In this document: in pieces, positions 1-64,000 of the stretch
Numbering within the stretch: the first letter of the stretch is position 1
Layout: the number at the start of each line of letters is the position of its first letter
Assembly: GCA_027054335.1 (NCBI GenBank)
Contig: JALUPA010000539.1
Location: forward strand, 904 to 64,903
DNA length: 64,000 nt
Origin: Ardenticatenaceae bacterium
GTDB taxonomy: Bacteria > Chloroflexota > Anaerolineae > Promineifilales > Promineifilaceae
Direction: 5' to 3'
Made by a program: the position numbers and the translations under genes
The notes under the pieces: model-generated
Database searches by the model: none
The model's input: only the letters and a program-made list of their open reading frames with translations
Told to the model about the DNA's origin: nothing

Positions 1-1
1 C

Positions 2-1051
2 CGGGCCGCGCTGCTGGACGCCGGGGTGGCGCAGGTGGACGGTATTTATGTGGGCAATATGACCGGCGGCCGTCTCAACCACCAGCGGCAGTTGGGGGCT
101 GTTGTAGCCGATGCTCTGGGCATGTGGGGGGTGGAAGCCGTCAAAATGGAAGCAGCTTGCGGTTCGGCCGGTTCGGCCATGCGGCAGGGCATTATAGCCA
201 TTGCCAGCGGTGAGATGGAGGCGGTGCTGGTGATTGGTGTGGAGAAGATGACGGAGAACGGTTTCCCCCAAACGACGGCCGCGCTGACCACGGCCGCTGA
301 CGCCGATTATGAGATTGAGCAGGGAGTTACCTTTGTGGGGCTGAATGCCTTGATCATGCGCCGCTATATGTATGAATATGGCTATGACCGGCACGATTTT
401 GCTCCTTTTGCCCTGAATGCTCACGCCAATGGGGCCAAAAATCCCAATGCCATGTTCCGCCAACCGATTTCGCTGGAGACGTATGACAACGGCCGTATCG
501 TGTCTGATCCCATCAGCTTGTTCGATGCTTCGCCCATCGGAGATGGGGCGGCCGCTTTGCTCCTGGTTCCGGCGGAAAAAGCGCCCCAGGCGGTGCGCGT
601 TATCGGTTCTGCGGTGGCCACGGATACGCTGGCGGTACATGACCGGGAGGACCCCCTCTGGTTGAGGGCCGGTGAGCTATCGGTGAAGCGGGCGTACGCT
701 CAGGCAGGTGTAGGCCCGGCCGATGTTGACTTGTTTGAGTTGCACGATGCCTTTACGGTGATGGCCGCGCTGTCTCTGGAGGCGTGTGGTTTTGCGGAGA
801 AGGGTGAGGGCGTGCGGTTGGCTCAGGAAGGGGATATTTTGCCGGACGGCCGTATCCCTATCAGCAGCATGGGCGGGTTGAAGGCGCGGGGGCATCCGGT
901 AGGGGCCACCGGTCTGTACCAGATAGCCGAAGCGACGCTGCAACTGCAAGGCCGGGCCGGCGCCGCCCAGATTGACGGTGTGGATATTGCTATGACGCAA
1001 AATATCGGTGGCAGTGGGGCAACCATTGTGACCCATATTTTACAAAAATGA
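2..1051 (+). CDS. thiolase-domain protein (archaeal/SCP-x-type acetyl-CoA C-acetyltransferase), 5' end outside window
   Basis: The frame stays open to the window edge (RAALLDAGVAQVDGIYVG upstream of the listed Met). Thiolase signatures are EAACGSAG (nucleophile Cys), GHPVGATG and NIGGSG. Confidence 0.8.
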   Translation, partial: RAALLDAGVAQVDGIYVGNMTGGRLNHQRQLGAVVADALGMWGVEAVKMEAACGSAGSAMRQGIIAIASGEMEAVLVIGVEKMTENGFPQTTAALTTAADADYEIEQGVTFVGLNALIMRRYMYEYGYDRHDFAPFALNAHANGAKNPNAMFRQPISLETYDNGRIVSDPISLFDASPIGDGAAALLLVPAEKAPQAVRVIGSAVATDTLAVHDREDPLWLRAGELSVKRAYAQAGVGPADVDLFELHDAFTVMAALSLEACGFAEKGEGVRLAQEGDILPDGRIPISSMGGLKARGHPVGATGLYQIAEATLQLQGRAGAAQIDGVDIAMTQNIGGSGATIVTHILQK

Positions 1052-1060
1052 TGTCTGTTG

Positions 1061-1092
1061 CGTGATGCGTGAAGATGTCTTCACGCATCACG
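1061..1092. repeat. GTGATGC-family hairpin (CGTGATGCGTGAAGA / TCTTCACGCATCACG)
   Basis: Perfect 15-nt inverted arms 10 nt after the thiolase stop. The same GTGATGCGTGA word recurs at 4535, 11518, 34024, 36391, 39866 and 41722. Confidence 0.85.
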
Positions 1093-1242
1093 TAGTCCCC
1101 TGGTACTGTTTGCCCCTTTTTTGCCCCTTTTTCACCCGCTTTATACGTCTGTTTGCGCCGGCCCGGTGTATAGTGGAAGCCATCCTCCCGACAATACGGA
1201 CGACACAACTGTTTACGGGAAAATTGGAGTGGATAGACCATC

Positions 1243-3111
1243 TTGCTACAGCAAAACCGGAAAGAATTCAGCAATATAGCGCCGCGGCTGCAATCTGCCT
1301 TGCAGGCTATTGCCGATGACGTCGTTGCGCGTCTGGGGTGTATTGGGGCCATCGCCACAACGTTGGAGAATGATGGCGGCTTGTACGCGCGGGCGGCGGC
1401 TTTTCAGGTTCCGGCGGAGTTGGCGCAGCGTTTTTTGGCGGAAAGCGGTCTGGACGTAACCGGCGAATCGGCCATTTTGTATCTGGACGAGAAAAAGCAC
1501 CGGTACAATCTGGGGGTGAATGCGGTTAAGGGAGTAAACGGCCGTGCCCAAACTATCGAGCAGCCTTATCTTATTTCTGACCAATTGTATGATTTGCTAC
1601 GGCCGTTAACCGATGAGGGCACGTCTGCCCGGTTGCAGGAAGAATTTGATATTCGCCAGGTTGTAGCTGTGCCCTTTATTGTAGAAAATGAAGTCGTGGG
1701 CAATTTGTTGGCGGCTTCCCGCGACTCGTTTGATGACCGGGATATTGATTTTTTGGTGGCTTTTGCCCGGCAGGCAGCTTCTTCCATTGCCCATCATTAT
1801 CGTCTGACGGCTATGGAGTCCTTGGGCAAAGTCATCTTTTCCCTCCAGGCCAAAATGACGGATGAAACGAAGGTGCTGCAAGCCGTGGTGGATTCTGTCG
1901 TTTTTGAATTGGGCTATGCCGGGGCGATGGTGGCGACACTGGAGTGGGGGAATGCCCTGCCGGTGCGGGCTTACGCACTGGATGATCGGCCGCAGATTTT
2001 GGCTCATCTGGAAGAGAAGGCAGGTATTAAACTGATCAGCCCCAAAGCAGTGGTTTATTTGGATGATGACCATTACAAAGATAATTTAAGCGTGCGGGCG
2101 GTAAAAAGCGTGAACGGCCGTCCCCAAAAATATCTGACCTCCAACAGATTGTATGATTTGCTGCGCCCTATCGTGCGCAAGTCGCTGGCTGATTTTGCTC
2201 AACAAATGCTGGGGATTCGCGCCGTTATCGCCGTGCCCTTTTTTGTGGAAGACGAGGTGGTAGGCAATTTGTTTGTCGCTTCCCGGCGTGACCAATTTTC
2301 TGCCTGGGAGATCACTGTTTTGACCTCATTTGGGCAGCAGGCGGCGGCCGGCATCCGCAACGCCCGACTGTACCATGAGATGGAGGAACAGCGGCGTATT
2401 GCGGAGATGTTTAGCCGCATGGCTTTCAGCGCCAATGCCTCGGTTCATGCCCTGAGCAACCTTCTGAGCGCCGTGCGCACCTACCTGCATCTGCTCACGG
2501 CCGCTTCCAGTTTTCCGCCCACCCAGCAGCAGGAAATTTTGAACAACAGCGCCAATATGCTGGAACGGCTGCGCCAGACGAGCGAGATTCTGGAGAATTT
2601 ACACACGCCTTGGCAGCAAATGCCGGATGAGCCGGTGAGTGTGAATGATTGTCTGGTGCGGGCGCTGCATGAGGTGTTCCCGCAACTTTTGGTAGGTTTT
2701 GAAGATGGCAGTATGGAAGACAAGATGGGTGTGCGGGTTCACATGATGCTGGCTCCGCATCTGCCCCGGTTAATGACTTCGCCGGATATGCTGACGGAGG
2801 CGTTGCGGGTGATTATCAAAAACGGCCGTGAAGCCATCGCTGAGACAGGCAAAAAAGGAGACCTCTGGATTGCCACCGGGCGGGTGGGGCTGGATGAAGT
2901 AGAAGTGACCATCCGGGATAACGGTACAGGTATCGCCGCGGAAGATTTGCCCCACATTTATGATCTGGGCTGGACGACGAGGGTGGATCAGGGGATGGGT
3001 TTTGGTCTGTTCTGGGCGCGGGATTATATTGTGCGGGTAAACGGCCGTATCGAAGTAGAAAGCACCTGGCAAGAAGGCACGACATTCCGGTTAACCTTCT
3101 CTGCCGCCTAA
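1243..3111 (+). CDS. GAF-GAF sensor histidine kinase
   Basis: Two paralogous GAF-like modules (LYLDEKKHRYNLGVNAVKGVNGRAQ...LYDLLRPL versus VYLDDDHYKDNLSVRAVKSVNGRPQ...LYDLLRPI). These are followed by a His-containing helix (SVHALSNLL) and HATPase_c motifs (DNGTGI, GMGFGL). The listed start is TTG and the exact start is uncertain. Confidence 0.8.
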   Translation: MLQQNRKEFSNIAPRLQSALQAIADDVVARLGCIGAIATTLENDGGLYARAAAFQVPAELAQRFLAESGLDVTGESAILYLDEKKHRYNLGVNAVKGVNGRAQTIEQPYLISDQLYDLLRPLTDEGTSARLQEEFDIRQVVAVPFIVENEVVGNLLAASRDSFDDRDIDFLVAFARQAASSIAHHYRLTAMESLGKVIFSLQAKMTDETKVLQAVVDSVVFELGYAGAMVATLEWGNALPVRAYALDDRPQILAHLEEKAGIKLISPKAVVYLDDDHYKDNLSVRAVKSVNGRPQKYLTSNRLYDLLRPIVRKSLADFAQQMLGIRAVIAVPFFVEDEVVGNLFVASRRDQFSAWEITVLTSFGQQAAAGIRNARLYHEMEEQRRIAEMFSRMAFSANASVHALSNLLSAVRTYLHLLTAASSFPPTQQQEILNNSANMLERLRQTSEILENLHTPWQQMPDEPVSVNDCLVRALHEVFPQLLVGFEDGSMEDKMGVRVHMMLAPHLPRLMTSPDMLTEALRVIIKNGREAIAETGKKGDLWIATGRVGLDEVEVTIRDNGTGIAAEDLPHIYDLGWTTRVDQGMGFGLFWARDYIVRVNGRIEVESTWQEGTTFRLTFSAA

Positions 3112-3489: not shown

Positions 3490-4449
3490 CTAAACCAGCA
3501 GGGATTGAGCCACCGTACCAGCGTATATAGCCAGCAGTAGAACCGTCAAGTAGTAATTGGAAGCCATAAACAGGGCGCGGGCGTGTGAGGCGGATGGGTC
3601 ACGGATAAGCTGCACGTTGCGCCAGAAAAGCATAAAGGAAACCAGCAGCACAGGCGCAAAATAAATCCAGCCCAACGCGGGCAGGGCAACCATCAGTACG
3701 CCAAAAATACAGGTGGGCAGCGTATGGGCCATGACCCACCAGGCAGCGCGATGGGGTGTCGTGTTAACCGGCAGCATAGGTACATCCGAGCGAGAATAAT
3801 CGTCTCGGTACAGCAGAGCCAGGCTCCAGAAATGAAAGGGCGTCCAGAGGAAGAGAATGAGGGCCAGGATGAGGGCGCCGGTTTCATTCCATTGGCCTAT
3901 GGCCGCACTGCCGGTAAGGACAGCCGCGCTGCCGGCCGCACCGCCAATGACGATGTTGAGCAAGGTGCGCGGCTTGAGCCAGATGGTGTAGATGATGGTG
4001 TAGATAAATGCGCCCAGAAGCAGGAAGAAGGCCATCGCCGGGTTAAAAGGGAGGACAACCAGGACGGGAATGAAGATGAGCAGGACGCTGACCACCGGTA
4101 CCCATTTGGGGTTTTTGATGTCGCCGTTGACTAACGGCCGTTTCCGGGTGCGGCGCATGGCTCCATCCGAATGACGCTCCCAATACTGATTGAAGGACGA
4201 CGAACCGGCTGCCGCCATCCCGCCGGTCAGCCAGAGGAGAAGCAGTGTGCCCAAGCCCGGCCAGCCGCCAGCCGCCAGAAATGCGCCGCCGGTGGCGGCC
4301 AACAAGAGCAAAAAAACTACGCGCAATTTGAACAGGACGACAATAAGATTCATGGTTTCCTGCCATTTGCTGCCAGTTCGGGTAGAAACTGCGTCCAGTT
4401 TGCCGGACGTTTCACTTTCCTGCACTTCAGTTGTATTGGTTAAGGACAT
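3490..4449 (-). CDS. ctaB: protoheme IX farnesyltransferase (heme O synthase)
   Basis: UbiA-family polytopic membrane protein with the heme O synthase motif NQYWERHSDGAMRRTRKRPL. Start moved to ATG at 4449, which is preceded by GGAGGAA. Confidence 0.85.
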   Translation of the reverse strand: MSLTNTTEVQESETSGKLDAVSTRTGSKWQETMNLIVVLFKLRVVFLLLLAATGGAFLAAGGWPGLGTLLLLWLTGGMAAAGSSSFNQYWERHSDGAMRRTRKRPLVNGDIKNPKWVPVVSVLLIFIPVLVVLPFNPAMAFFLLLGAFIYTIIYTIWLKPRTLLNIVIGGAAGSAAVLTGSAAIGQWNETGALILALILFLWTPFHFWSLALLYRDDYSRSDVPMLPVNTTPHRAAWWVMAHTLPTCIFGVLMVALPALGWIYFAPVLLVSFMLFWRNVQLIRDPSASHARALFMASNYYLTVLLLAIYAGTVAQSLLV

Positions 4450-4574: not shown

Positions 4575-5234
4575 ATGACGACGTTACGCAGATATTTGCA
4601 CGAACCGGTGAATACGCTGACTCATATGTTGGGCGCGGCCGTTTCTGTGGCGGGACTGCTGGTTTTGCTTGTCCTAACCTGGGGTGATTGGCCGCGGCTG
4701 GCGACGATGTTGGTTTATGGGTTGAGTATGATTCTTCTCTTCGCCGCCAGTTCCCTGATGCACGGCGTCAAGACCAGCCCGCGCTACCATTTTTGGCTGA
4801 ACCGGCTGGATCACGCCGCCATTTTCCTGCTGATTGCCGGAACGTATACGCCAATTGCCTACAACCTGTTCCCTTCTCCCTGGAATTGGCTGATTTTGGC
4901 AGTGGTGTGGACGGCCGTACTCAGCGGCGTCTTCTACAAAACCACCAGCAAGCAAATTCATGGCTTCCTCAACGTGAGCATCTACGTCATTCTGGGCTGG
5001 GGGGCAGCTTTTCCTCTCTTTCTGGCAACCAGGACGCTAAATCTGATTCCCTGGCAAGGGGTTTTGTGGCTGCTGGCCGGTGGGCTGATTTACTCCATTG
5101 GCTTCCTCATTTACTATCGCCGTTGGCCCGATCCCTGGCCGGACACCTTCGGCCACCACGAAATCTGGCATTTGTTCGTGATGGGCGGCTGCCTGTGTCA
5201 CTATTTGTTTATCTTGTTGTATGTGGCCCGGTAA
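4575..5234 (+). CDS. hemolysin III / PAQR family membrane protein
   Basis: 7-TM protein with LNRLDHAAIFLLIAGTYTP and HHEIWHLFV motifs. The listed start (4536) lies inside a GTGAT tandem repeat, so ATG 4575 is preferred. Confidence 0.8.
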   Translation: MTTLRRYLHEPVNTLTHMLGAAVSVAGLLVLLVLTWGDWPRLATMLVYGLSMILLFAASSLMHGVKTSPRYHFWLNRLDHAAIFLLIAGTYTPIAYNLFPSPWNWLILAVVWTAVLSGVFYKTTSKQIHGFLNVSIYVILGWGAAFPLFLATRTLNLIPWQGVLWLLAGGLIYSIGFLIYYRRWPDPWPDTFGHHEIWHLFVMGGCLCHYLFILLYVAR

Positions 5235-5275: not shown

Positions 5276-7513
5276 CTATTCTTCATACGGCCGTTTCCAC
5301 ACCCAGAACAACGCCAATACAAACAGCACCAGCAGCAAGACCAACGACAAAGAAGAAAGTACAGAGAGGCGGGACGGCGGTTGACCCGGTTCTTTGGCTG
5401 CCGCGTTTGTTTTGGGGAGTGGAGCGAGCGGCGTGGCCTTGCTGTCTGCGTCCGGGGCAGGCATTTCTACGGCCGTATCAGGCGCTTCCAAAAGAAAAGC
5501 AACGATCATTTCCACCTGTTCGGGGGAGAGACGCTCGCCGTAATACTGGGGCATCACGTTAGTCAGGCACGGTCCGTTAGGGCATTCCGGGATAATAAAC
5601 GCATTCGGTTCCAGGATGGATTGGCGCAAGTAGTCGGCTGCCGTCATTCCGGCAATGCGTTCCCCGGCGACGGCCCCAATGTTCGTCAAATCCGGCCCCA
5701 CTTTCCGCGCTTCGCCCAATGCACCGATAACGTGACAGGAGCCGCAGCCCGCATTCAGGATAACTTCCTCTACCGTGTCCCCTTCAATCGGGCGGGGTGT
5801 GGCGGTAGCCACCGGTGCAGCGGATGTAGCTATCGGCGTTGGCGTATCTTCCGGGATGGGGGTGGGGATAGGCGTCAGAGCCAGATTATCTTGTTCCGGC
5901 TGGCTGCCGAATCTGGCCGGCTCGGCGCGCAGGATTGCTTCGCATTGATTGATACCCGGTTCCGGATCAGGCATACACCACCAGGGATCGCCCTTTTTGG
6001 TCTTGAGCAGAGGTACAAACCAGAACACGACATTTTCGCCGGACGCCGGATCGCCGTTAAGCCACTGGCGCGGCGGCTGGTAGGTATCGCCGGGGCCGGT
6101 GACGACGGGGCCATCTCCTTCATCTTCGTTATCTTGCAGGATGAAGAAGTAGGCTTCATCCTGCCCCAGGGGATCGGTTGGCTCCATCTGCCAGATGTAG
6201 CTGGCGTCCCCGTGGCTCGCGGCCACCTTGTTCCCCGTGAGTGAGAGGGTGAGAACGTTGTCTTCAAGCAGATTATTGTCATCCAGCAGCGGCGTTTCCA
6301 CAAAAGGGTACAGTTCCAGTTCCGATTTGGCTTCTATCCATTGGGCGCCATCCCAAACTTGTACCTCATTGTCGTCGGGGCCGGCCAAATCTACATCAAT
6401 GCGCCAGAACGGCCGGTAGATGGATAAATCGTCACAGCCCGGACCGTGCGAGGTGAAGCGGAAATCCAGGCTGCCGTCATCGTAAAACTGGATGATTTGC
6501 TCGTAGCGGTAGCAGCAGATGCAGTTGGGCCAGCGGGTGAATTCGGTGAAAAGCTGGCGCACTTCAAACCCGTCGTCAAATTCGTTGACTTCGGTACCGC
6601 CATATGCCCGGACGGTGGCGTTGAAGCCGATTTCGTCCCGGTAGCCGCCGGGCCAACTGGGATACCAGGCTTCAATCTGGGTGATTTTGGCGCTGGAAAA
6701 GATGAGCGTGTCGTCATAGGTGGCGTCGGTGAAGTTGAGGCCGTCGTGGGCGGTCATTTCCCAGCAAACGTTCCAGCCGTCTTGTTCTGTGCAGCCGTCA
6801 TCATAAGCGCCGCGCTGGGCCACGGGCATCTCTACGTCCAGGTCGGGGCGGCCGCGGGTGTAGAAGGTGCGGGCCACTTTGTCTTGTTCCAGGTTGACGA
6901 AGACGTGGAAGACACGGCCGTCGCCCGCCGGAGAAGCAAACGTTAAATCCACACACCAGTCATCACGGCAGTCATCGTCGGCCAGCCAGCCCGACATGGG
7001 GATCATCACCGGATTAGCTGCGCCAATGTCCCCCAGGATGGCCTGCACCTGAGGGTCGGCCGCGGCAATTTCCAGGGTGCGGGCTAAAATATATTGGCTG
7101 CCGGGCGGACGGGCCAGAGCATCCGTCCATTGCGCCTCTACGGAGTGGGTTTTCAGGTTGACGATAGCGTTGATTGTGCCGCCGTTGGCCATGTCATAGT
7201 AGATGGCGTGGGCGCAGTCCGTCCCGCATTCCCACTGTTGGCTCTCGCTTTGGCCCAGGCGCACCGCTTCCACAAACTGGACATTTTCTTTTTCCTGGAT
7301 AGCGTTGAGTTGGGGGATGGCGGCTGCCAACTGCTCCGGGGAAAAGAGGCGGTCAGCTTCAGCGCCCATACCGAGCATTTGTTTTCCTTTGGCTACGGCG
7401 ATCTGGATACGGCCGTTTTCGGCCGTGCGCAGCCAAAAAATCTGGCCGATGAGTATGACAAGGGCAACTGCAATTAGCCGGATGGTCGCCCGTTGGCGTG
7501 GCGTCGTCTTCAT
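5276..7513 (-). CDS. membrane-anchored protein with large unassigned extracytoplasmic domain and C-terminal monoheme cytochrome c domain
   Basis: Signal-anchor MKTTPRQRATIRLIAVALVILIG, a Cys-rich unassigned region (NCICCYRYEQ), a Pro/Thr linker, a CGSCH heme-binding motif and a C-terminal TM helix. Start set at ATG 7513. Confidence 0.6.
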   Translation of the reverse strand: MKTTPRQRATIRLIAVALVILIGQIFWLRTAENGRIQIAVAKGKQMLGMGAEADRLFSPEQLAAAIPQLNAIQEKENVQFVEAVRLGQSESQQWECGTDCAHAIYYDMANGGTINAIVNLKTHSVEAQWTDALARPPGSQYILARTLEIAAADPQVQAILGDIGAANPVMIPMSGWLADDDCRDDWCVDLTFASPAGDGRVFHVFVNLEQDKVARTFYTRGRPDLDVEMPVAQRGAYDDGCTEQDGWNVCWEMTAHDGLNFTDATYDDTLIFSSAKITQIEAWYPSWPGGYRDEIGFNATVRAYGGTEVNEFDDGFEVRQLFTEFTRWPNCICCYRYEQIIQFYDDGSLDFRFTSHGPGCDDLSIYRPFWRIDVDLAGPDDNEVQVWDGAQWIEAKSELELYPFVETPLLDDNNLLEDNVLTLSLTGNKVAASHGDASYIWQMEPTDPLGQDEAYFFILQDNEDEGDGPVVTGPGDTYQPPRQWLNGDPASGENVVFWFVPLLKTKKGDPWWCMPDPEPGINQCEAILRAEPARFGSQPEQDNLALTPIPTPIPEDTPTPIATSAAPVATATPRPIEGDTVEEVILNAGCGSCHVIGALGEARKVGPDLTNIGAVAGERIAGMTAADYLRQSILEPNAFIIPECPNGPCLTNVMPQYYGERLSPEQVEMIVAFLLEAPDTAVEMPAPDADSKATPLAPLPKTNAAAKEPGQPPSRLSVLSSLSLVLLLVLFVLALFWVWKRPYEE

Positions 7514-7708: not shown

Positions 7709-7981
7709 TTAAACGGCCGTGACCACTGCCACATCCGGGAAAAACTGCTTCACTGTACCTTCAATCCAGCCATGCAAAGTAACCGGGGCCAAATTACATC
7801 CTTCGCAAGCGCCAGACAACCGCACTTGCACTTGCCCATCCTCATACGAGACAAATTCAACAGCGCCACCGTGATAATACTCGATGTAGGAACTGAGACT
7901 TTCGATGAGGGCGGCAATTTGTTCCTCTTCCGGGGCATCAGCAGCGACGCCTGTTTTCATACCGGCATATTCTGTACTCAT
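7709..7981 (-). CDS. NifU-like (Nfu) Fe-S cluster scaffold domain protein
   Basis: NifU C-terminal domain pattern: HGGAVEFVSYEDGQVQVRLSGACEGCNLAPVTL with a CxxC. Start at ATG 7981, preceded by GGAG. Confidence 0.8.
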   Translation of the reverse strand: MSTEYAGMKTGVAADAPEEEQIAALIESLSSYIEYYHGGAVEFVSYEDGQVQVRLSGACEGCNLAPVTLHGWIEGTVKQFFPDVAVVTAV

Positions 7982-8065: not shown

Positions 8066-8656
8066 ATGGTGGAAAACCTGCACCCGGATGCGCAAAAATG
8101 GAATGAAATATTTCGGCAGGAGGGAGACGCCTGGTTAGCTCGACGGCCGCGGCAGCTGCTGTTGGATTATGCGGAAATGCTGCCGCGGCAGGGGTTGGCG
8201 CTGGATGCAGCGGCGGGGGTGGCTATTCACGGCCGTTACCTGGCCAAATTGGGTCTCCACGTGATTGCTCTGGACATTTCTGAAGTGGGGCTGCGCCTGG
8301 CCCGGCAGCAGGCACTGGCCCAGGGTCTGTGGCTGGAAGCAGCCGTTTACGATTTGGCCCATCCCTGGTTTCCTCCGGATTGTTTTGACGTGATTGTTAA
8401 TTTTCGCTTTCTGGAACGGGCCACTTTCCCTATGTACCGGCGGGCGCTGAAGCCGGGTGGCTGGCTATTGTTTGAGACGTTTGTCAAGACGGATACGGCC
8501 GTGCCCACCCCTTCCCATTACCTTAACCCCGGCGAACTAAAAGCTGCTTTTGCTGATTGGGAGATTGTGCATTATGCGGATACGGCCGTACGAAGCCCCG
8601 ATTGTCGCCTGCGCCAGGTCGAACAACTCGTGGCCCGCAAACCCGGCGCGGCGTGA
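8066..8656 (+). CDS. class I SAM-dependent methyltransferase
   Basis: Motif I region LALDAAAGVAIHGRYLAKLGLHVIALDIS and post-I/II spacing typical of TehB/UbiE-like methyltransferases. Confidence 0.7.
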   Translation: MVENLHPDAQKWNEIFRQEGDAWLARRPRQLLLDYAEMLPRQGLALDAAAGVAIHGRYLAKLGLHVIALDISEVGLRLARQQALAQGLWLEAAVYDLAHPWFPPDCFDVIVNFRFLERATFPMYRRALKPGGWLLFETFVKTDTAVPTPSHYLNPGELKAAFADWEIVHYADTAVRSPDCRLRQVEQLVARKPGAA

Positions 8657-8689: not shown

Positions 8690-9673
8690 TTATTCCCTTA
8701 CCCCTTCCTTCCGCCGTTCCGATAGTTGTTTGAGCTTGACTTTAGTCTCTCGCCAGGTAATTTTGGATAACCCCAGTTTTTGCCGGATGTCATCCTGTTC
8801 TACGCCGGTTTCCCAGTCATGCAAAGCCGAAATCCAGCGCAAATTCTCAAAAGAGAGCAGGCCGTGGGCCAGACCGGCCTCGTCACTAACGTCTCGCAAA
8901 ATATATTCCAGATTCCGGGACGTGCAGGTGAACAACGTATCTGTCGGTTTATATTGCTCCAGATATTCATCCAGCACTTCCAGCCACTCCGGGTCTAAAT
9001 CCAGTTTGCGTTCCTTGTAGCGCAAACTGGGATTCGCATAGCGAATATATAATACCGGATGCGCCTCATCTTCACGGTTTATGTGGTTGGGGACAATGGC
9101 CATCGCTTCCCCTTTCTTGATGCCGGTTTGCAGCAGTAACGTTAACAAGAGGTGGGGGCGGGCATCTTGTTTTTTGATTTCACCTTGCCGCCATTGTTCG
9201 GTGACAAGTAGAGCCTTTTCCAGTTCCTCATCTGTAGGCAAGGTGGGCAGGGGGCTGGTAACGCTGCGCTGAATGACGGCGTCTGCCGGATTTTCTGTGA
9301 GAACGCCTGTCTTGTTAAGCCAGCCAAAAAAGACTTTGAGGGTGGTTATGCGCCGGGCCAGGGATTTGGGACCGCATGATACGCCACGGCCGTCAGGCTT
9401 AGGATTCCTCAGCCAGTCGAGAAAATCATTCAAATCTTTCGTACCAATTCGGCCGATAGGCTGGCCGATACCCAGATATTCCCCCAGCAAGCGGACGTCG
9501 CTGGAAAAAGCCTTGATCGTGTTAAGGGCAAAACCTTCCTCCCGCATATGCTGTTCAAAAACACCTAGAGCGGCCTGAATCGAGGCGTCTGCGGTCAGCG
9601 ACGGCCGTTTTTCCGATTGTTCCGGCGGTAATTCTGCATCAGGAATCAGAGGTTGTTGAATATCCTCACTCAT
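8690..9673 (-). CDS. tyrosine-recombinase-like protein (XerC/D fold), apparently lacking catalytic residues
   Basis: N-terminal SAM-like core-binding region (NTIKAFSSDVRLLGEYL, LNDFLDWL). The C-terminal region aligns to Xer boxes, but box I is TGIKKGE (R->K), box II is FENLRWISALHDW, and LGLSKITWRETK has no Tyr at the nucleophile position. Confidence 0.55.
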   Translation of the reverse strand: MSEDIQQPLIPDAELPPEQSEKRPSLTADASIQAALGVFEQHMREEGFALNTIKAFSSDVRLLGEYLGIGQPIGRIGTKDLNDFLDWLRNPKPDGRGVSCGPKSLARRITTLKVFFGWLNKTGVLTENPADAVIQRSVTSPLPTLPTDEELEKALLVTEQWRQGEIKKQDARPHLLLTLLLQTGIKKGEAMAIVPNHINREDEAHPVLYIRYANPSLRYKERKLDLDPEWLEVLDEYLEQYKPTDTLFTCTSRNLEYILRDVSDEAGLAHGLLSFENLRWISALHDWETGVEQDDIRQKLGLSKITWRETKVKLKQLSERRKEGVRE

Positions 9674-13702: not shown

Positions 13703-13797
13703 AGTTGTTTTAGCTGTATTTGGGAGACGGCCGTTAACAATGTGGTAAAATCATTTGCCAAAATCCGTTCCTTTCTTCATTCGTTGTGGAGGCAGTG

Positions 13798-15598: not shown

Positions 15599-15614
15599 AA
15601 CAACTCCATCTGAA

Positions 15615-22990: not shown

Positions 22991-22991
22991 A

Positions 22992-31344: not shown

Positions 31345-34035
<2,691 letters not shown>

Positions 34036-50480: not shown

Positions 50481-51323
50481 TTGCTGGCGGTTCTGTTTTT
50501 GGATGTGTTGTGGCAAAACGGCCGTCGCTGGTTGACGGTAGGCTTGGCCGTCTTGATTTTGGGGGAACTTTTGCCCGCGCCGGCCCGGTTAACGGTCGTG
50601 CCCCCGTTGCTGGACGGGCAAAACCTTACCCCACCGCTCGTCTTCCTGCCTTTTCCCGAAAGTAAATCGGTGCGGGCTTACGCGAATACGGCTACCTGGA
50701 TGGCTATCACCGGCAGCAATCCCGCGCCTATGGTCAACGGCTACTCTGGTTACTTCCCCCAAATGAACGGGCAGCTTCGGGATTTACTGGCCGATTTCCC
50801 CACATTTGACGGCCTGGAAACGTTACGCAGCCTGGGTGTGCGCACCATCTTAATCACCAAAGAGTCCCTGAGCCTGGAACAGGAGGCCAGATTAGCGGCA
50901 GAAGTGGCTGACGGCCGTCTCATCCCCACCGCACCTCTGGACAATTTCCTGGTCTACAAACTGCCTGACGCCCAATTCAACCCGGCCACGCAATATACCG
51001 GCGAATGGGCCTTGGATGCCGCTGTAGATGGGGACGAACTGGCGCTGCGGGCTTATGCGGCCGTACCGGATATACAAGTGTATGTAGCAGACCCGGTGTT
51101 GTCACCGCTGAATTGGCAGGTAAGGGTGATGGGGGAGGACGGCCGTCGCCTGGAATATCCGGTATCGCCGCCAGGAACAGTTCTGCTCTATCATGACAGC
51201 AACCGCCGCCTGCTCCTGACTATCCCTCTCCCGGAAGTTGCCGGAACGTACACCCTGACGCTGCAAAATGCGGAAACCGGTCAAATATTGGGGGAAACGA
51301 CGGTTTTGGTTCCCTCAAATTAA
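50481..51323 (+). CDS. hypothetical protein, possibly the 3' remnant of a larger membrane-protein gene
   Basis: The frame is open from 50415 with no ATG, and the listed start is TTG. It begins inside a TM-like segment (YLALLAVLFLDVLW). No family recognised. Confidence 0.35.
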   Translation: MLAVLFLDVLWQNGRRWLTVGLAVLILGELLPAPARLTVVPPLLDGQNLTPPLVFLPFPESKSVRAYANTATWMAITGSNPAPMVNGYSGYFPQMNGQLRDLLADFPTFDGLETLRSLGVRTILITKESLSLEQEARLAAEVADGRLIPTAPLDNFLVYKLPDAQFNPATQYTGEWALDAAVDGDELALRAYAAVPDIQVYVADPVLSPLNWQVRVMGEDGRRLEYPVSPPGTVLLYHDSNRRLLLTIPLPEVAGTYTLTLQNAETGQILGETTVLVPSN

Positions 51324-54593: not shown

Positions 54594-56737
54594 TATTCCT
54601 GTGTTGCCACATAAACCGAGTCCCCTTTGGTGACAAAAATACGCAAAGGCGTTTCGGCTACGTCGAAGCTGCTGATGTTGCTGAATAGTTCCTCGCCGTT
54701 GGGGCCGGTGGCCCGGTATTGAGCCAGTACCTGCCCGGTGGGGCGGCTGACTTGCACGATACGGCCGTTCCCCGCATCGGCAATAAAAATAGAAGCGTTC
54801 AAGCCCCGGCCAATAATTTTGGCGGCCGTGGGATTGAGTAGGGGGACGTTCAGGCCGCTTTTCAGCAAATCCTCTTCCGTCCATTGCACCCGGCCGGAGC
54901 GGGTGTCGTAATAACGGATACGGCCGTCTTCATACAAAAGCATCAGGCTGCCATCCCCGCTGAAAATATCGAAATCAACCACCTTGTCCAGTTCCGGGTT
55001 TTCCTCTCCGTCAAAGGCAATCACCCGGTCATCCGCGTTGGTAATGAAATCATCTCCTTGAGGAATATATTTCCAGATTACCTGAGCTGCCGGGTCCAAA
55101 ATGTAAAGCCGCTCGTCAAAAGTGGCGATGTCCGTGGGGACACGCCATTCGCTGGATAAATCCAACGGTACGGCGAACGTATTGTCGTAACCGGGTTGGA
55201 AGGTGAGCAGCGCACCATTGCCATCCAGCATAGCCAGCCCCTCGCGGCTGACCGAATTGCCTTGCGGCCGCCACATGATGTCAATGATTTTCCCGGCCAC
55301 GTGATTCCCGATAGCCTGCCCCTCGAATAAAAGTTGCAAAGGAGCCACATTACCCGTATCCAGATAAGTTTCGTCCGTGTCGTGTTCGTAAACGAAACCA
55401 TTGAGCCGGTCGTAAGTGTAGACGTCTCCTTCGCTGCCGGGGCGCAGGACGATGGCTGCCAGATCGGTATTCTCGGTTGTATATTGGTAAAAGAGATCGG
55501 CGTTCAGGCGGGTGATTTGGTCCAGAACGTCCAGGCGGCCCCTGGCAATCTGGCGCATTTGAGCCACTTGTTCATCACCGGGGCGCAGTTGGGTCTCCGC
55601 TTCCTGGGCCAGCCCCAAGACTTCATTGTATAGGCGGCGGGTAGCTGCTTCGTCAGTCATTTGTTCAGCCTGACCCAGTTTTTGCCCCATTTCCGCTTTG
55701 ATGGCGGCTAGTTGCTGTACTTGTCCCCGCTGCAGGTAGACGCCGGTGACGATGGCCGCTATAAGGAAGGGAATGATGATGGCGATCAGGGCCGGGATAG
55801 CCCAGTTGATTTGAGCCGGATCGTCTTCACCGGCGGACGGCCGTAACCGGGCCAATAATTCTGCCAGCCAACTGGTAAAGCCAGCCAGACCTAAAGCCGC
55901 TCCGGCCCCGGCTCGCCGGGCTGTGGTTTGAATATCTGATGGGGGTGATGAAGGGGCTACGGCCGTTTGGCGCTGTGGTTGGGTCTGGGGTGGGGCCGCA
56001 GCCGGTTGTGTGGCCGGCGGGCTGACGTCCAGCATATCCAGCGGCACGTCTGTGCCAAATTCCACCAGCAACAAACGACCGGATTCCGGGCCGACAATAC
56101 CGACCAGCGCTTCCAGACCTTCTTCGATAGGGGTAGCTACCACGACGGCCGTAAAATCATCCGTGGCCAGGTGCGCCAGTCGCGGGTCGCCCAGCAGCAA
56201 CGTATCTCCCGATTGCAGCCGGTGATGAAAGTAGCGGATGTCCAGCCCGCTGCTGCGCCCCATAGGGGTGATGTGGTCCGGCTCTTGGGGCGGTAATCGC
56301 TCAATTCCGAAATTGTGGCCCACCAATGCCCACGATTCACCCGTCTGGATAGTGAACAATTCTGTGCCCCGGAAGGCGGCGCAAGTGACAGCCCCTTCAC
56401 GGGGCGGCCCTGACTGGCTTAAATTGTAGCGCAGAAGGTACTGGTTGGCTTCCACGACCGCTTTACGCAGGGCGGCGGTGACGCTGCCGCTCGTTTTATA
56501 AAATTGCTGGCTGATAACCTGGAGAATGTTTTGGGTGAGAACGGCCGTTTCTTCTCCCGAACCGCTCAACGTCAGATGGACAAATAAGGAATCACGTGCC
56601 CGACTGTGTGCCGCTTTGGGCGGGGCCGCCTGGGCTAATAAGCCCGGCGCGGCAGCTGTACCGGCTGCCGCTTCCTGCAAAACCCCGTCTACAATATAAA
56701 GTTGTCCGGTAACGGCCTGTAATTCCATGATTGGCAA
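54593..56737 (-). CDS. hypothetical single-pass membrane protein (cytoplasmic N-domain, extracytoplasmic beta-propeller-like C-domain)
   Basis: 714-aa ORF with a central TM helix (INWAIPALIAIIIPFLIAAIVTGVYL) and a repetitive beta-rich C-terminal half. The function is not recognisable. Confidence 0.5.
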   Translation of the reverse strand: MPIMELQAVTGQLYIVDGVLQEAAAGTAAAPGLLAQAAPPKAAHSRARDSLFVHLTLSGSGEETAVLTQNILQVISQQFYKTSGSVTAALRKAVVEANQYLLRYNLSQSGPPREGAVTCAAFRGTELFTIQTGESWALVGHNFGIERLPPQEPDHITPMGRSSGLDIRYFHHRLQSGDTLLLGDPRLAHLATDDFTAVVVATPIEEGLEALVGIVGPESGRLLLVEFGTDVPLDMLDVSPPATQPAAAPPQTQPQRQTAVAPSSPPSDIQTTARRAGAGAALGLAGFTSWLAELLARLRPSAGEDDPAQINWAIPALIAIIIPFLIAAIVTGVYLQRGQVQQLAAIKAEMGQKLGQAEQMTDEAATRRLYNEVLGLAQEAETQLRPGDEQVAQMRQIARGRLDVLDQITRLNADLFYQYTTENTDLAAIVLRPGSEGDVYTYDRLNGFVYEHDTDETYLDTGNVAPLQLLFEGQAIGNHVAGKIIDIMWRPQGNSVSREGLAMLDGNGALLTFQPGYDNTFAVPLDLSSEWRVPTDIATFDERLYILDPAAQVIWKYIPQGDDFITNADDRVIAFDGEENPELDKVVDFDIFSGDGSLMLLYEDGRIRYYDTRSGRVQWTEEDLLKSGLNVPLLNPTAAKIIGRGLNASIFIADAGNGRIVQVSRPTGQVLAQYRATGPNGEELFSNISSFDVAETPLRIFVTKGDSVYVATQE

Positions 56738-56908
56738 TGTTTATTGATGGCTAAAATGCGGCGATACGCCAGAACTCTAACGATGGCGTTAAGCATAGCA
56801 CAACCGTTCGTGAACTACAATTTTTGGGGACGGCCGTATTTGACAAATGGATTTCAATATGGCACAATGTTCGTTCTGTCTCTTAACGAAATTCTAACCC
56901 AAATCTAA

Positions 56909-57142: not shown

Positions 57143-61558
<4,416 letters not shown>

Positions 61559-61650: not shown

Positions 61651-62676
61651 TTAAAAATCCCGCTGGAGGAGGAAGTCGGCCAGTTCGTTGAGGGTGCTGT
61701 AGGCTGCGCCGTTGGGCTGGGCGGCTTCCAGGTGGCCCTGGGCGCTTTGGGAGTAGTAGGTGGCTTTCTCAGTGGCGTACTGGCGGGCGCCGCTTTTATC
61801 CAGCAGGCGGATGGCTGCGGCGACAAAGGCGGGGTCAGTGTTTTCCTGCCGGTAAAGCTGGCGTAAGGCGGCGCTTTGGCTGAGGCCGTAGAGGACGGGC
61901 AGAGTCTTCTTTTTGGTGCTGATGTCGCTGCTGGCCGATTTGCCGATAACGGCTTCATCGCCCCAAATACCCAGGATGTCGTCTTTGACCTGGAAGGCCA
62001 GCCCCAGCTCCAGGCCGAATTGGGCGTAGTGGGCCACAGTTTGGGCGTCGCAGCCGGCAATCAGGGCGCCCAGTTCGGTGCAGAGGGAGATGAGTACGGC
62101 CGTTTTCCCCGTAATCATCTCGATATATTCCTCTACCGTCACACTTTCCCGCGTTTCAAAATCCATGTCGTTAAACTGGCCGCGCGTCAGGTTGAGGCAG
62201 GTTTCGTCAAAGCGGCGTAAGGCTTGCACCGTAATTTCTGCCGGAACGCCGCGCTCCAGCAGGCGGCTCATGGCCAGGTGCGCCTGGGCAAACATGGCGT
62301 CCCCGGCGTTGATGGCCTGCTCAATGCCCCAGATCGTCCACAACGTTTTACGGCCGCGCCGCGTGGGGCTGGCGTCTTCAATGTCGTCGTGGATAAGGGA
62401 AAAATTGTGCAGCAGTTCGATGGCGGCGGCGGCGGGTACAGCTTGCTGCCAATCCCCCCCGGCGGCCTGGTTGGCGAGGAGGAGGAGCAACGGCCGTATC
62501 TGCTTCCCGGCGTGAACTTGCACCGGCTGCATTTGCTCATCCACCCAGCCCATGTGGTAATGGTTCATGCCCAGAAATAAATCCGGCGTCACGTTGTCGT
62601 CATATTGCAGCACAGCCTTCATCTCTTCGTTGATGGCGGTCCGCATATCTTCTGTTTTGGCGAGAATTTTTTGCAT
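61651..62676 (-). CDS. polyprenyl diphosphate synthase (trans-IPPS, GGPP/longer)
   Basis: First Asp-rich motif LIHDDIED, RRG, and second Asp-rich motif KDDILG. Confidence 0.85.
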   Translation of the reverse strand: MQKILAKTEDMRTAINEEMKAVLQYDDNVTPDLFLGMNHYHMGWVDEQMQPVQVHAGKQIRPLLLLLANQAAGGDWQQAVPAAAAIELLHNFSLIHDDIEDASPTRRGRKTLWTIWGIEQAINAGDAMFAQAHLAMSRLLERGVPAEITVQALRRFDETCLNLTRGQFNDMDFETRESVTVEEYIEMITGKTAVLISLCTELGALIAGCDAQTVAHYAQFGLELGLAFQVKDDILGIWGDEAVIGKSASSDISTKKKTLPVLYGLSQSAALRQLYRQENTDPAFVAAAIRLLDKSGARQYATEKATYYSQSAQGHLEAAQPNGAAYSTLNELADFLLQRDF

Positions 62677-62724
62677 AATTGGTAATTGGGTAACTGGGTA
62701 ATTACGTAATTACCCAATTACTCA
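62677..62724. repeat. AATTACCC/GGGTAATT octamer-repeat hairpin
   Basis: AATTGGTAATTGGGTAACTGGGTAATTACGTAATTACCCAATTACTC, filling the whole gap between the idi-2 stop and the polyprenyl synthase start. Confidence 0.8.
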
Positions 62725-62727
62725 CTC

Positions 62728-63786
62728 TCAAAACTCCGTATAAAGCGACGTTTCGGCCAGCGCAGCCAAATCCTTTGCGCCGCTGGCGAACATGGTGATG
62801 CGCAGTTCGTCGCTTAAAATTTCGGCCGTTTCGATAACGCCGTCTACGCCGTTCTGATCCGCTGCCCGCAAAAAGTCACCGGCCAGTCCGACCAGATTCG
62901 CGCCGAGGGCGATACATTTGGCTACGTCAATGCCGTTGCGGATGCCGCCGCTGGCGAAAAGAGGCAGGTGGGGAGCGGCTTCCCGGCAGTATTGGAGGGA
63001 TACGGCCGTAGGAATCCCCCAATCAATAAACGTACTGGCTACCCGCGCGTGGCGGGTCGTCGGGGCGCGATACATCTCCACCTGGCTCCAGGACGTGCCC
63101 CCGGCCCCGGCCACGTCAATGGCCGCGATGCCTGCATCCGCCAACTGTCGGGCTGCCTGCCGGGAAAATCCCCAGCCCACCTCTTTGGCAATGACCGGGA
63201 CGGGCAGCCGGGTGCAAACCTGCTCCACCTTCGCCAGCAGATGGGCAAAATTGCCGTCTCCTTCCGGCTGGACAGCTTCCTGCAAGACGTTGAAGTGCAA
63301 AATCAGGGCGTCAGCCTGGCACATATCCACGGTGCGCTGGCATTCATCCAGGCCGTAGCCGTAATTGAGCTGCACTGCGCCTAAATTGGCAAAAAGGAGG
63401 ATGTCGGGGGCCACCTGGCGCACGTGGTAAGTGTCAGCCAGCGTGGGGTCTTCGATGGCGGCGCGCTGCGAACCCAGCCCCATGGCCATCCCCGTTTCCT
63501 GGGCGGCCGCGGCCAGAATGCGGTTGATTTCTCCCGCTTCGGGCGTGCCGCCGGTCATGGAGGAGATGAGCAGCGGCGTGCGCAGTCGTTTGCCGAAAAT
63601 TTCTGTGCTTAAATCTATGGCGTCCAGGTTTAATTCCGGCAAAGCCTGGTGCATAAAGAAATATCTTTCCAGCCCGGTGGTAAGCTGGTTAAAGGCCACG
63701 TCTTCTTCCAGATTGATACGAATGTGATCCGCCTTGCGTCGCTCGTGAATGGCGGCGTCGGCCGGCGGGTCCATGATTGCGCTCAT
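62728..63786 (-). CDS. fni: type 2 isopentenyl-diphosphate delta-isomerase (FMN-dependent)
   Basis: RKADHIRI, the LISSMTGG motif, and TIM-barrel FMN-binding glycine-rich stretches ([17 protein letters not shown]). Confidence 0.9.
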
Positions 63787-64000
63787 AAATTGACTCCGTT
63801 TTTCCTTTTCGGATAGCTTGCCAGGAGTATACTATGCCGTGAACTGAATGGCGAGAAAAAGAGGGTGACGGCCGTTGCTCTCTGCCATCTTGTGTTCAGG
63901 CAACGTGTAAGCCACGTCTGCTATACATTCTCTGGTTACGTGCCTGTGGGATTCGCCGCGACTCATGTGCCGGGTTACAATTCGCGGGCGCCATTTGACA

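Follow-up and report, generated by a model that had tools for sequence, protein, structure and literature searches.

HIP1 (GCGATCGC), the highly iterated palindrome (HIP) of cyanobacteria, is a GC-rich palindromic octamer that occurs about once or twice per kb, tens-fold over expectation, in all reading frames and in non-coding DNA (PMC4390886, PMC5861425). Its density ranges from 300 to 2700 per Mb (PMC4390886) and its over-representation from 16- to 317-fold (PMC5861425). Variants that deviate at one base pile up at either its first or its final base (Elhai, PMC4390886), the inner hexamer is a classic type II site, and the word has lineage-specific palindromic extensions (PMC4390886, PMC5861425). 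Exceptional cyanobacteria have alternative HIPs (GGCGCC, GCsGC, rCCGGy, GGGATCCC, TCGATCGA and CAGGCCTG), and relatives swap such hyper-abundant palindromes, often with the same core and other outer bases (PMC4390886). Here we describe the palindromic octamer ACGGCCGT in a 64-kb stretch of DNA from an Ardenticatenaceae bacterium (contig JALUPA010000539.1, positions 904 to 64,903; hereafter the window). ACGGCCGT resembles HIP1 in each of these respects and differs from it in the core, which is CGGCCG as opposed to CGATCG, and in the phylum, which is Chloroflexota. Since CGATCG has no copy in the window and the organism is not a cyanobacterium, we rejected an assignment to HIP1 in the strict sense.

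Comparable effects are found in other systems. Dcm/Vsr of Escherichia coli (CCWGG) reportedly shifts k-mer abundance towards its own site, as Bhagwat and McClelland are said to have found in 1992. Being a methyltransferase-linked mismatch nuclease, it provides a mechanistic template for the drive proposed below, but the effect in E. coli is modest, well below saturation, and concerns a 5-mer. The DNA uptake sequences (DUS) of Neisseria and uptake signal sequences (USS) of Pasteurellaceae are, like ACGGCCGT, short words within genes at about one per kb, spread by drive and accompanied by local amino-acid bias (PMC1939737, and general knowledge). Unlike ACGGCCGT, they are asymmetric 9-12-mers, often paired in terminators and depleted in phages and recent islands, and their reachable sites are unsaturated. 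ACGGCCGT was rejected as a DUS or USS on account of its perfect palindromy, its density of 1.33 per kb in intergenic against 1.67 per kb in coding DNA, and its abundance in a tailed phage (35 per 10 kb). Chi, the over-represented 5-8-mer that marks self DNA for RecBCD or AddAB, can also benefit phages; unlike ACGGCCGT it is asymmetric, replication-oriented and over-represented few-fold, and we know of no palindromic Chi. The searchable literature contained no paper on ACGGCCGT or on any HIP with a CGGCCG core and nothing relevant on an excess of CGGCCG, and described HIPs only in cyanobacteria.

Abundance of the palindrome

ACGGCCGT occurs exactly 105 times in the window, which corresponds to 1640 per Mb, and is its most frequent 8-mer; the runner-up among palindromic octamers has 8 copies. 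The initial annotation of this DNA had counted about 105 copies by hand, and its counts per block (19, 17, 14, 22, 15, then 12+6=18 for the last 14 kb) were all reproduced. It put the chance expectation at about one or two copies per 64 kb; dinucleotide shuffling gave a mean of 1.56 (maximum 5), and 1.4-4.4 copies are expected under Markov models of order 0-3. The corresponding observed-to-expected ratio (O/E) is 24-74, with 74 at order 0 and 28 at order 2. Both the density and the second-order ratio are within the published HIP1 ranges.

Models of higher order gave expectations of 41 (order 5) and 87 (order 6) when the copies were left unmasked. These values are inflated because the 6- and 7-mer sub-words are mostly ACGGCCGT itself; once the copies were masked, 1.3-7.5 were expected at every order. 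In the Markov check proposed earlier, the maximal-order O/E of 1.2 formally indicates no over-representation relative to sub-words. We rejected this ratio as a refutation, since it is circular; the masked expectation is at most 7.5.

A further 17 copies lie in the adjoining 9.8 kb of the same genome, as read from an identical metagenomic scaffold. The spacing of the copies fits an exponential distribution (mean 609 bp, coefficient of variation (CV) 0.94, Kolmogorov-Smirnov p = 0.29). The core CGGCCG is the sole strongly over-represented palindromic hexamer of the window (199 copies vs 28.5 expected), and 105 of these 199 have the A..T flanks that make up ACGGCCGT. Near-miss variants, noted before as common, are real and located at the outer positions: GCGGCCGT has 24 copies, TCGGCCGT 17 and CCGGCCGT 12 on both strands, and any inner-position variant has 1-4. 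An extension to (G)ATACGGCCGTAT(C), which had also been claimed, was found as a weak preference only; the base at -1 is T in 37% and C in 11% of cases, and G stands at -4 in 54% and at -3 in 48%.

Codon phase, saturation and effect on the proteome

A simple greedy call gave 48 open reading frames (ORFs), which make up 90.6% of the window. They contain 97 of the 105 copies (92%), and eight copies are intergenic. Copies occur on both strands and in all three phases, namely as ACG-GCC-GTn (T-A-V, phase 0; 44 copies), nAC-GGC-CGT ([D/N/Y/H]-G-R, phase 1; 41 copies) and nnA-CGG-CCG-Tnn (x-R-P-x, phase 2; 12 copies), as the initial annotation had stated. The six intergenic copies that it listed were all recovered and two more were found, at 24972 and 39989; its L-R-P-L copy, placed at 1609, starts at 1599. 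All copies of ACGGCCGT are listed here. The strand of every copy is '.', and the strand of the ORF is given in brackets.

489..496, phase 1 NGR, ORF 26-1051(+)
846..853, phase 1 DGR, ORF 26-1051(+)
1538..1545, phase 1 NGR, ORF 1243-3111(+)
1599..1606, phase 2 LRPL, ORF 1243-3111(+)
2114..2121, phase 1 NGR, ORF 1243-3111(+)
2822..2829, phase 1 NGR, ORF 1243-3111(+)
3041..3048, phase 1 NGR, ORF 1243-3111(+)
4134..4141, phase 2 KRPL, ORF 3490-4479(-)
4911..4918, phase 0 TAV, ORF 4536-5234(+)
5287..5294, phase 2 KRPY, ORF 5276-7576(-)
5469..5476, phase 0 TAV, ORF 5276-7576(-)
6914..6921, phase 1 DGR, ORF 5276-7576(-)
7409..7416, phase 1 NGR, ORF 5276-7576(-)
7713..7720, phase 0 TAV, ORF 7709-8095(-)
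8229..8236, phase 1 HGR, ORF 8066-8656(+)
8495..8502, phase 0 TAV, ORF 8066-8656(+)
8582..8589, phase 0 TAV, ORF 8066-8656(+)
9386..9393, phase 1 DGR, ORF 8690-9673(-)
9601..9608, phase 2 KRPS, ORF 8690-9673(-)
10246..10253, phase 0 TAV, ORF 10018-11511(+)
10285..10292, phase 0 TAV, ORF 10018-11511(+)
10342..10349, phase 0 TAV, ORF 10018-11511(+)
11648..11655, phase 0 TAV, ORF 11582-12676(+)
12380..12387, phase 0 TAV, ORF 11582-12676(+)
12729..12736, phase 1 YGR, ORF 12680-13702(+)
12870..12877, phase 1 HGR, ORF 12680-13702(+)
13073..13080, phase 0 TAV, ORF 12680-13702(+)
13602..13609, phase 1 DGR, ORF 12680-13702(+)
13727..13734, intergenic
14200..14207, phase 0 TAV, ORF 13786-14973(+)
14305..14312, phase 0 TAV, ORF 13786-14973(+)
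14912..14919, phase 1 YGR, ORF 13786-14973(+)
15919..15926, phase 1 DGR, ORF 15664-18252(-)
16760..16767, phase 0 TAV, ORF 15664-18252(-)
17761..17768, phase 1 DGR, ORF 15664-18252(-)
19473..19480, phase 0 TAV, ORF 18522-19787(+)
20722..20729, phase 2 TRPF, ORF 19784-20749(+)
23535..23542, phase 0 TAV, ORF 22986-24578(+)
23677..23684, phase 1 DGR, ORF 22986-24578(+)
23921..23928, phase 2 QRPL, ORF 22986-24578(+)
23983..23990, phase 1 DGR, ORF 22986-24578(+)
24222..24229, phase 0 TAV, ORF 22986-24578(+)
24749..24756, phase 1 DGR, ORF 24580-24930(+)
24853..24860, phase 0 TAV, ORF 24580-24930(+)
24972..24979, intergenic
26259..26266, phase 0 TAV, ORF 25257-28145(+)
26359..26366, phase 1 NGR, ORF 25257-28145(+)
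27628..27635, phase 1 DGR, ORF 25257-28145(+)
27874..27881, phase 1 DGR, ORF 25257-28145(+)
27967..27974, phase 1 DGR, ORF 25257-28145(+)
30721..30728, phase 0 TAV, ORF 30316-30921(+)
31515..31522, phase 2 KRPY, ORF 31339-34035(+)
32186..32193, phase 1 HGR, ORF 31339-34035(+)
32443..32450, phase 0 TAV, ORF 31339-34035(+)
32687..32694, phase 1 YGR, ORF 31339-34035(+)
33004..33011, phase 0 TAV, ORF 31339-34035(+)
33366..33373, phase 2 ERPY, ORF 31339-34035(+)
34174..34181, phase 0 TAV, ORF 34168-34830(+)
34670..34677, phase 1 DGR, ORF 34168-34830(+)
34804..34811, phase 0 TAV, ORF 34168-34830(+)
35613..35620, phase 1 DGR, ORF 34844-36394(+)
36041..36048, phase 0 TAV, ORF 34844-36394(+)
36155..36162, phase 0 TAV, ORF 34844-36394(+)
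36269..36276, phase 0 TAV, ORF 34844-36394(+)
36550..36557, phase 1 NGR, ORF 36441-37046(+)
36723..36730, phase 0 TAV, ORF 36441-37046(+)
36940..36947, phase 1 DGR, ORF 36441-37046(+)
37593..37600, phase 0 TAV, ORF 37065-38819(+)
38552..38559, phase 2 ERPS, ORF 37065-38819(+)
38938..38945, intergenic
39357..39364, phase 1 NGR, ORF 39032-39877(+)
39989..39996, intergenic
40102..40109, intergenic
41539..41546, phase 0 TAV, ORF 40521-41720(-)
42457..42464, phase 0 TAV, ORF 41757-43208(-)
43162..43169, phase 0 TAV, ORF 41757-43208(-)
43642..43649, phase 0 TAV, ORF 43609-44082(+)
43847..43854, phase 1 NGR, ORF 43609-44082(+)
43942..43949, phase 0 TAV, ORF 43609-44082(+)
44506..44513, phase 0 TAV, ORF 44164-46038(+)
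44882..44889, phase 1 YGR, ORF 44164-46038(+)
45807..45814, phase 2 KRPS, ORF 44164-46038(+)
46143..46150, phase 1 DGR, ORF 46050-46649(-)
46694..46701, intergenic
48916..48923, phase 0 TAV, ORF 47619-49775(-)
49041..49048, phase 1 DGR, ORF 47619-49775(-)
49876..49883, phase 0 TAV, ORF 49794-50291(-)
50518..50525, phase 1 NGR, ORF 50481-51323(+)
50911..50918, phase 1 DGR, ORF 50481-51323(+)
51139..51146, phase 1 DGR, ORF 50481-51323(+)
52578..52585, phase 0 TAV, ORF 52560-53669(+)
54761..54768, phase 1 NGR, ORF 54593-56737(-)
54920..54927, phase 1 DGR, ORF 54593-56737(-)
55837..55844, phase 2 LRPS, ORF 54593-56737(-)
55959..55966, phase 0 TAV, ORF 54593-56737(-)
56145..56152, phase 0 TAV, ORF 54593-56737(-)
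56541..56548, phase 0 TAV, ORF 54593-56737(-)
56830..56837, intergenic
59190..59197, phase 1 DGR, rpoC 57143-61558(+)
60329..60336, phase 0 TAV, rpoC 57143-61558(+)
60696..60703, phase 1 NGR, rpoC 57143-61558(+)
62096..62103, phase 0 TAV, ORF 61651-62676(-)
62490..62497, phase 2 IRPL, ORF 61651-62676(-)
63002..63009, phase 0 TAV, ORF 62728-63786(-)
63868..63875, intergenic

Shuffling synonymous codons within genes left 12.5 +/- 3.2 copies (maximum 22), against 97 observed. From this result, the three phases and the copies in non-coding DNA, we conclude that the constraint acts on DNA and not on protein, as had been proposed. The sequence contexts of the coding copies are diverse, so no repeated domain lies behind them, and an origin from a few repeated motifs in one frame does not apply. 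The sole place where a repeated peptide adds copies is a repetitive, low-complexity E-P-T-A-V-P-P-T linker in a periplasmic-binding protein (10246-10349), with three copies 39 and 57 bp apart.

The word saturates the positions available to it. Where the proteins of the window permit ACGGCCGT through synonymous codons, it is realised at 97 of 105 positions (92%): at 44/47 for T-A-V, 41/42 for [NHDY]-G-R and 12/16 for x-R-P-x. No other palindromic octamer exceeds 21% of its reachable positions, and the median is 0. The proteins themselves are affected. T-A-V is the commonest tripeptide of the window (47 vs 8.1 expected), and D-G-R (21 vs 5.3) and N-G-R (13 vs 3.0) each occur about four times as often as expected; V-A-T, R-G-D and R-G-N, in which the order is reversed, are at expectation. 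Codon choice follows the whole word: ACG-GCC is used in 44/47 T-A-V, in 22/43 T-A-[A/D/E/G], which allow the 7-mer only, and in 7/52 other T-A tripeptides, and GGC-CGT is used in 41/42 [NHDY]-G-R vs 10/61 other x-G-R. The underlying force reads the full 8-bp palindrome cooperatively around the CGGCCG core. In non-coding DNA, NCGGCCGN occurs 12 times, in each case with one or both flanks correct; 8 of these occurrences are perfect. To our knowledge, no HIP1 figures on synonymous saturation, proteome distortion or phage density comparable to those of ACGGCCGT have been published.

Clade distribution and origin of the copies

The window RpoC belongs to Chloroflexota, with Ca. Leptofilum as the closest match (87%), followed by Promineifilum and Ardenticatenaceae metagenome-assembled genomes (71-79%). 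Judged by this protein, the source lineage falls within Promineifilales/Ardenticatenia. A scan of metagenome contigs with alanyl-tRNA synthetase for closer relatives yielded one 2.2-kb contig (72% identity). Over 21.9 kb, the window matches scaffold_150 of ENA ERZ23495063 at 100% identity, and contigs of two other assemblies match it at 99.9%; such near-identity to independent assemblies means that the pattern is not an assembly artefact. Among the strain-level contigs (99.9-100% identical), no single-nucleotide polymorphism falls in any ACGGCCGT copy, with few polymorphisms overall. The 8-bp tandem duplication AATTACCC of the window (20793-20800) is one unit shorter in one of these contigs (L227).

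Among 80 rpoC loci, enrichment of CGGCCG is restricted to the Promineifilales/Ardenticatenia clade and present in all of its members. The preferred outer bases vary between lineages, with ACGGCCGT, GCGGCCGC and CCGGCCGG all built on the CGGCCG core, much as in the alternative HIPs of cyanobacteria. Unlike there, the switch is seen here at the same rpoC codons, with matching amino-acid changes. The following figures are realised over reachable synonymous positions per rpoC locus, with at most 24 kb per relative.

L002: ACGGCCGT, 22/23
L001: ACGGCCGT, 12/16
L033: ACGGCCGT, 14/17
L010: ACGGCCGT, 2/2
L050: GCGGCCGC, 32/42 (33 copies in 24 kb)
L050: ACGGCCGT, 0/10
L007: CCGGCCGG, 6/12
L006: CGGCCG core without flank preference, 57/99
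L003: mixed words
Outgroups L008 and L014: CGGCCG core, about 16%
Outgroups L008 and L014: ACGGCCGT, 0/10

The base at -1 also depends on the lineage, being T in the window, A in L001, L033 and L010 (69%) and C in L050 (56%); each of these preferences lengthens the palindrome.

In a codon alignment of rpoC, the words lie in aligned columns without indels. The site orthologous to copy 59190 is ACGGCCGT in L010, L033, L002 and L006, and GCGGCCGC in L050. At column 846, the A..T lineages encode D-G-R (GAC-GGC-CGT) and L050 encodes S-G-R (AGC-GGC-CGC); relatives without the trait have D-G-L, E-G-L or D-G-Q, with no arginine. Copy 60329 is common to L001, L033, L003, L005 and L006, and copy 60696 is unique to the window. 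At column 1417, N-G-R occurs in the window alone and the relatives have G/A/P/S/K-G-R. At column 444, where G-G-R is invariant, the arginine codon is CGT in those A..T genomes that have the core, giving GCGGCCGT with 7/8 bases of the word, and CGC in L050, giving GCGGCCGC with 8/8. These column patterns imply that codons and amino acids are adjusted in place to the local form of the word. Two of the three rpoC sites are common to several relatives and one is unique, a comparison between genomes that comprises these three sites only. The aligned columns indicate point substitution in place, rather than insertion, as the source of the copies; whether copies are gained by point mutation is what the initial annotation had proposed to check at orthologous sites.

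Density, over-representation, codon phases, outer-base variants and alternative words on a shared core all agree with the HIP1-like iterated palindrome first suggested. All those defining features of HIPs that are testable here are present: abundance, frame independence, deviations at the outer bases, extensions and alternative words.

Phages, mobile elements and recently arrived DNA

A scan of IMG/VR for three closely spaced ACGGCCGT copies returned 65 loci, 41 of which, from more than 20 different elements, have at least 12 copies per 10 kb; at least 20 elements have a density of 14-41 copies per 10 kb. The word fills 401 of the 465 positions that are reachable in 14 dense loci. The distortion of tripeptides is stronger in these loci than in the host window, with T-A-V at 176 vs 18.4 expected, N-G-R at 72 vs 8.8 and D-G-R at 71 vs 13.9. 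One of the elements, UViG_3300048592_001391, is a tailed phage, whose genes include those for a large terminase, a Mu-like portal, a protease and a tail protein. The 50.5 kb retrieved contain 177 copies of the word, or 35 per 10 kb, some of which lie inside these structural genes; no methylase is visible in the 77% of the element that was read. Other dense elements encode FtsK/SpoIIIE-like proteins and cell-wall hydrolases.

The dense mobile-element loci (341 kb) contain 906 perfect copies, 480 words that differ at one outer position and 136 that differ at one inner position. The last number is close to chance level, for which about 110 is a rough estimate, and the core is therefore very efficiently maintained. 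Outer deviations occur mostly where the amino acid blocks completion of the word. A corresponding triple-copy scan of viral contigs for GCGGCCGC mostly matched ordinary high-GC phages. In three IMG/VR loci of moderate GC content (L234, L251 and L292), GCGGCCGC or CGCGGCCGCG reaches 25-28 copies per 10 kb; these loci may represent mobile elements of hosts with the G..C word.

In the window, three of the eight unrealised reachable positions lie around a reverse-transcriptase gene (28461-30342), and the region 28300-30921 holds one ACGGCCGT copy. The RVT_1 reverse-transcriptase gene itself (28985-30157) is flanked by small ORFs without a Pfam match. The single copy and the three unrealised positions suggest that a retroelement, such as a group II intron or a retron-like element, arrived here recently. 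A restriction-modification (R-M) island with low GC content at third codon positions (GC3), described below, has one copy in 2 kb. From the sparse copies in both regions, recent DNA seems not yet converted. A YoeB/YefM toxin-antitoxin pair of low GC3 (15028-15640) has zero copies.

Avoidance of other palindromes

Many other palindromes are avoided. Fourteen of the 64 palindromic hexamers have zero copies in the host window, where 12-28 of each are expected, and several further ones have 1-3 copies. The absent hexamers are:

ACATGT, ACGCGT, ACTAGT, AGATCT, CCTAGG, CGATCG, CTCGAG
GAGCTC, GCATGC, GGATCC, GGGCCC, GTCGAC, GTGCAC, TTCGAA

In a phage of this host group, 23/64 palindromic hexamers are absent, and the list overlaps heavily with that of the host. 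The avoidance spans the entire window (1-64000) and the phage loci L173, L180, L201, L208 and L222, and implies a very rich restriction landscape. Since CGGCCG accumulates in a host and phage that shed other palindromes, it is not a restriction target here; we rejected ACGGCCGT and CGGCCG as avoided restriction sites, the opposite being seen both in the window and in phage.

Origin of the palindrome

The results reveal a directional, trans-acting force at the level of DNA, which works by point substitution and saturates the reachable sites. It overrides some amino-acid constraints, has a lineage-specific preference for the outer bases, and acts on any DNA that replicates in these cells, phage DNA included. 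The best explanation, in which our confidence is evenly balanced, is that ACGGCCGT is a HIP-type highly iterated palindrome made by methyltransferase-linked biased repair. The agent would be an enzyme system of the host that recognises a specific DNA sequence, is symmetric and probably dimeric, and most plausibly consists of a methyltransferase for CGGCCG or the 8-bp site together with a mismatch-correction nuclease. Near-cognate mismatches would be resolved towards the cognate word and damage in existing copies would be repaired, and the word would thus build up as a molecular drive, whether or not an individual copy is useful. Dcm/Vsr very-short-patch repair and the methyl-directed ratchet of Elhai for HIP1 (PMC4390886) are possible precedents.

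Several points weigh against biased repair. The rule of Elhai, a G before the methylated C, suits GCGGCCGC but not ACGGCCGT. Xu et al. (PMC5861425) argue from the conservation of HIP1 for selection over biased repair, and recent preprints tie HIP1 to transformation, which it is reported to stimulate in a methylation-dependent manner. The density of ACGGCCGT is higher in phage than in the host; this excess can be explained by drive, through looser protein constraint and more replications, but also by selection on the phage. Finally, the window, 14 clade loci and 65 viral loci yielded no gene for a methyltransferase or a Vsr-like or MutH-like protein that might plausibly be specific for CGGCCG, and the search for EagI/HaeIII-like methyltransferases and Vsr-like nucleases that the initial annotation had advised was accordingly negative. 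This absence is weak evidence, as a small part of any host genome was covered, namely about 74 kb of the source genome and no more than 24 kb of each relative.

With rather less than even confidence, we propose further that the host possesses a 'genome-writing' repair system whose 8-bp specificity was switched several times within one order, and which rewrites chromosome and phage alike, with enough force that T-A-V became the most frequent tripeptide of the proteome. If this is true, comparative genomics could pinpoint the enzyme pair and settle the 30-year-old question of how HIPs arise. A still more novel variant of this reading is that the word serves as a palindromic tag of self identity, which a nuclease or defence system would read and phages would mimic. 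The origin and function of HIPs have been at issue for three decades, and the case in Chloroflexota shows that the phenomenon is more general. The A..T, G..C and C..G forms constitute a natural comparative experiment, in which a co-varying methyltransferase, nuclease or receptor would be the prime candidate for the mechanism. ACGGCCGT is also a strong marker for binning Promineifilales contigs, assigning phages to hosts and spotting recently acquired DNA; the hosts are filamentous bacteria that include activated-sludge lineages.

Selection for an identity signal is a possible but, in our judgement, unlikely alternative. Each copy would then be useful for uptake or transformation, for protection from nucleases as a palindromic Chi-like signal independent of orientation, or for strand discrimination in mismatch repair, and phages would mimic self. 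As mimicry predicts, phages that shed other palindromes carry ACGGCCGT at about twice the host density. Its density of about 1.6 copies per kb is similar to that of DUS and USS. HIP1 is conserved beyond codon effects (Xu et al., PMC5861425), and its reported stimulation of transformation also fits a selected signal. However, 92% saturation combined with amino-acid replacement requires a very strong force per site, which is unusual for thousands of redundant signals, and the exponential spacing shows no regular pattern. Asymmetry and a depletion in phages and recent islands characterise the known uptake sequences as well as Chi, whereas ACGGCCGT is palindromic and present in phage structural genes, and the DNA of lytic phages enters the cell otherwise than by transformation. 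Switching of the flanks at the same orthologous codons would moreover require repeated co-evolution of receptor and signal.

We consider it improbable that ACGGCCGT is the binding site of a protein that structures the nucleoid or maintains the chromosome, with selection on the overall density of the word. Palindromic 8-mers do suit dimeric DNA-binding proteins, and the word is spread over coding and non-coding DNA regardless of genes. HIP1, for which Xu et al. favour this reading, shows a periodicity of 10-90 kb (PMC5861425). A binding site gives no reason, however, for the excess in phage, the saturation of codon triplets or the lineage-specific outer bases, and the local spacing is random.

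That the word is a side effect of codon usage, or of some few peptide motifs or domains that recur, has next to no chance of being correct: T-A-V, D-G-R and N-G-R are common in the window and three copies do lie in the linker at 10246-10349, but this cause is excluded by the shuffle that preserves protein and codon usage, the three phases and eight intergenic copies, the diverse contexts, the reversed tripeptides at expectation, and outgroup orthologues that have the same tripeptides and never use such codons (0/10). Equally negligible is the footprint of a small mobile element, of a repetitive extragenic palindrome (REP) or miniature inverted-repeat transposable element (MITE), or of assembly or adapters, which the short, palindromic and very numerous word might bring to mind; flanks are variable, without conservation past weak single-base preferences, 92% of the copies are in ORFs, those in conserved genes are in frame and in aligned columns without indels, and the same pattern appears in many independent assemblies of different projects.

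Candidate enzymes

Six-frame ORFs of the clade loci and of the viral loci were searched for candidate enzymes of the biased-repair system favoured above, by regular expressions for Vsr and for motif IV of C5 methylases and by phmmer. The phmmer queries were M.HaeIII, Dam and Vsr, in approximate sequences, and the methylases of the window and of L175. No C5 methylase was found in any HIP-bearing locus, and one weak M.HaeIII-like ORF was found in the viral locus L223, which has a low density of the word. Vsr was absent from the window, clade and viral loci, and no methylase was found in the 10 kb 3' of the window.

The only DNA methylase in the window is part of the R-M island mentioned above:

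51646-53669: R-M-like island with the layout of a type II R-M pair; GC3 0.38-0.40 vs about 0.65 elsewhere

The first gene of the island encodes a YhdJ-type adenine DNA methylase with a DPPY motif (PF01555, 8e-58; NCBIfam NF008572, 475 bits at a cutoff of 292). The second gene, an ORF of 369 aa, overlaps the first; its product matches nothing in Pfam, NCBIfam or PDB and is therefore a candidate endonuclease. ATGCAT, which we take to be the YhdJ target, occurs once in the window vs 12 expected. We rejected this methylase as the cognate enzyme because it is adenine-specific and likely targets ATGCAT; the island is probably an NsiI-like system unrelated to ACGGCCGT.

Three methylases of the N6_N4 family were found in mobile elements with a high density of the word:

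L175, 9015-9839(-): SPPY motif; best PDB match rotifer N4CMT, 1e-36
L221, 9698-10996(-): SPPY motif
L171, 9827-11116(-): N-terminus ParB-like by eye

The SPPY motif is typical for N4-cytosine enzymes. The three are mutually unrelated and were rejected as a recurrent candidate.

A putative endonuclease of the PD-(D/E)xK type and the Uma2 family (PF05685) is encoded at 34168-34830 and adjoins alaS. The Uma2 family has undergone great expansion in cyanobacteria and in Chloroflexota, which are the two phyla with HIP-type words known so far. The other loci contained no homologue, and no paper that ties Uma2 to HIPs was found; as a lead to the mechanism, this protein is speculative.

Neighbouring genes

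The rpoC gene of the window lacks rpoB upstream (54593-61558). Its neighbour is a divergently transcribed protein with a weak match to PQQ repeats, and the rpoBC operon is split.

Conflict-type genes are present in and beside the window. A 962-aa conflict-type STAND NTPase (25257-28145) has a NACHT-like stretch similar to the antiphage protein EruA and a C-terminus of the EgtB/SenA/GldK sulfatase-modifying-factor type. An NB-ARC protein, likewise a conflict-type STAND NTPase, is encoded beside a TPR protein (40521-43208), and a pair with TCAD9 and EAD7 domains is located just past the window (L350 1-4968).

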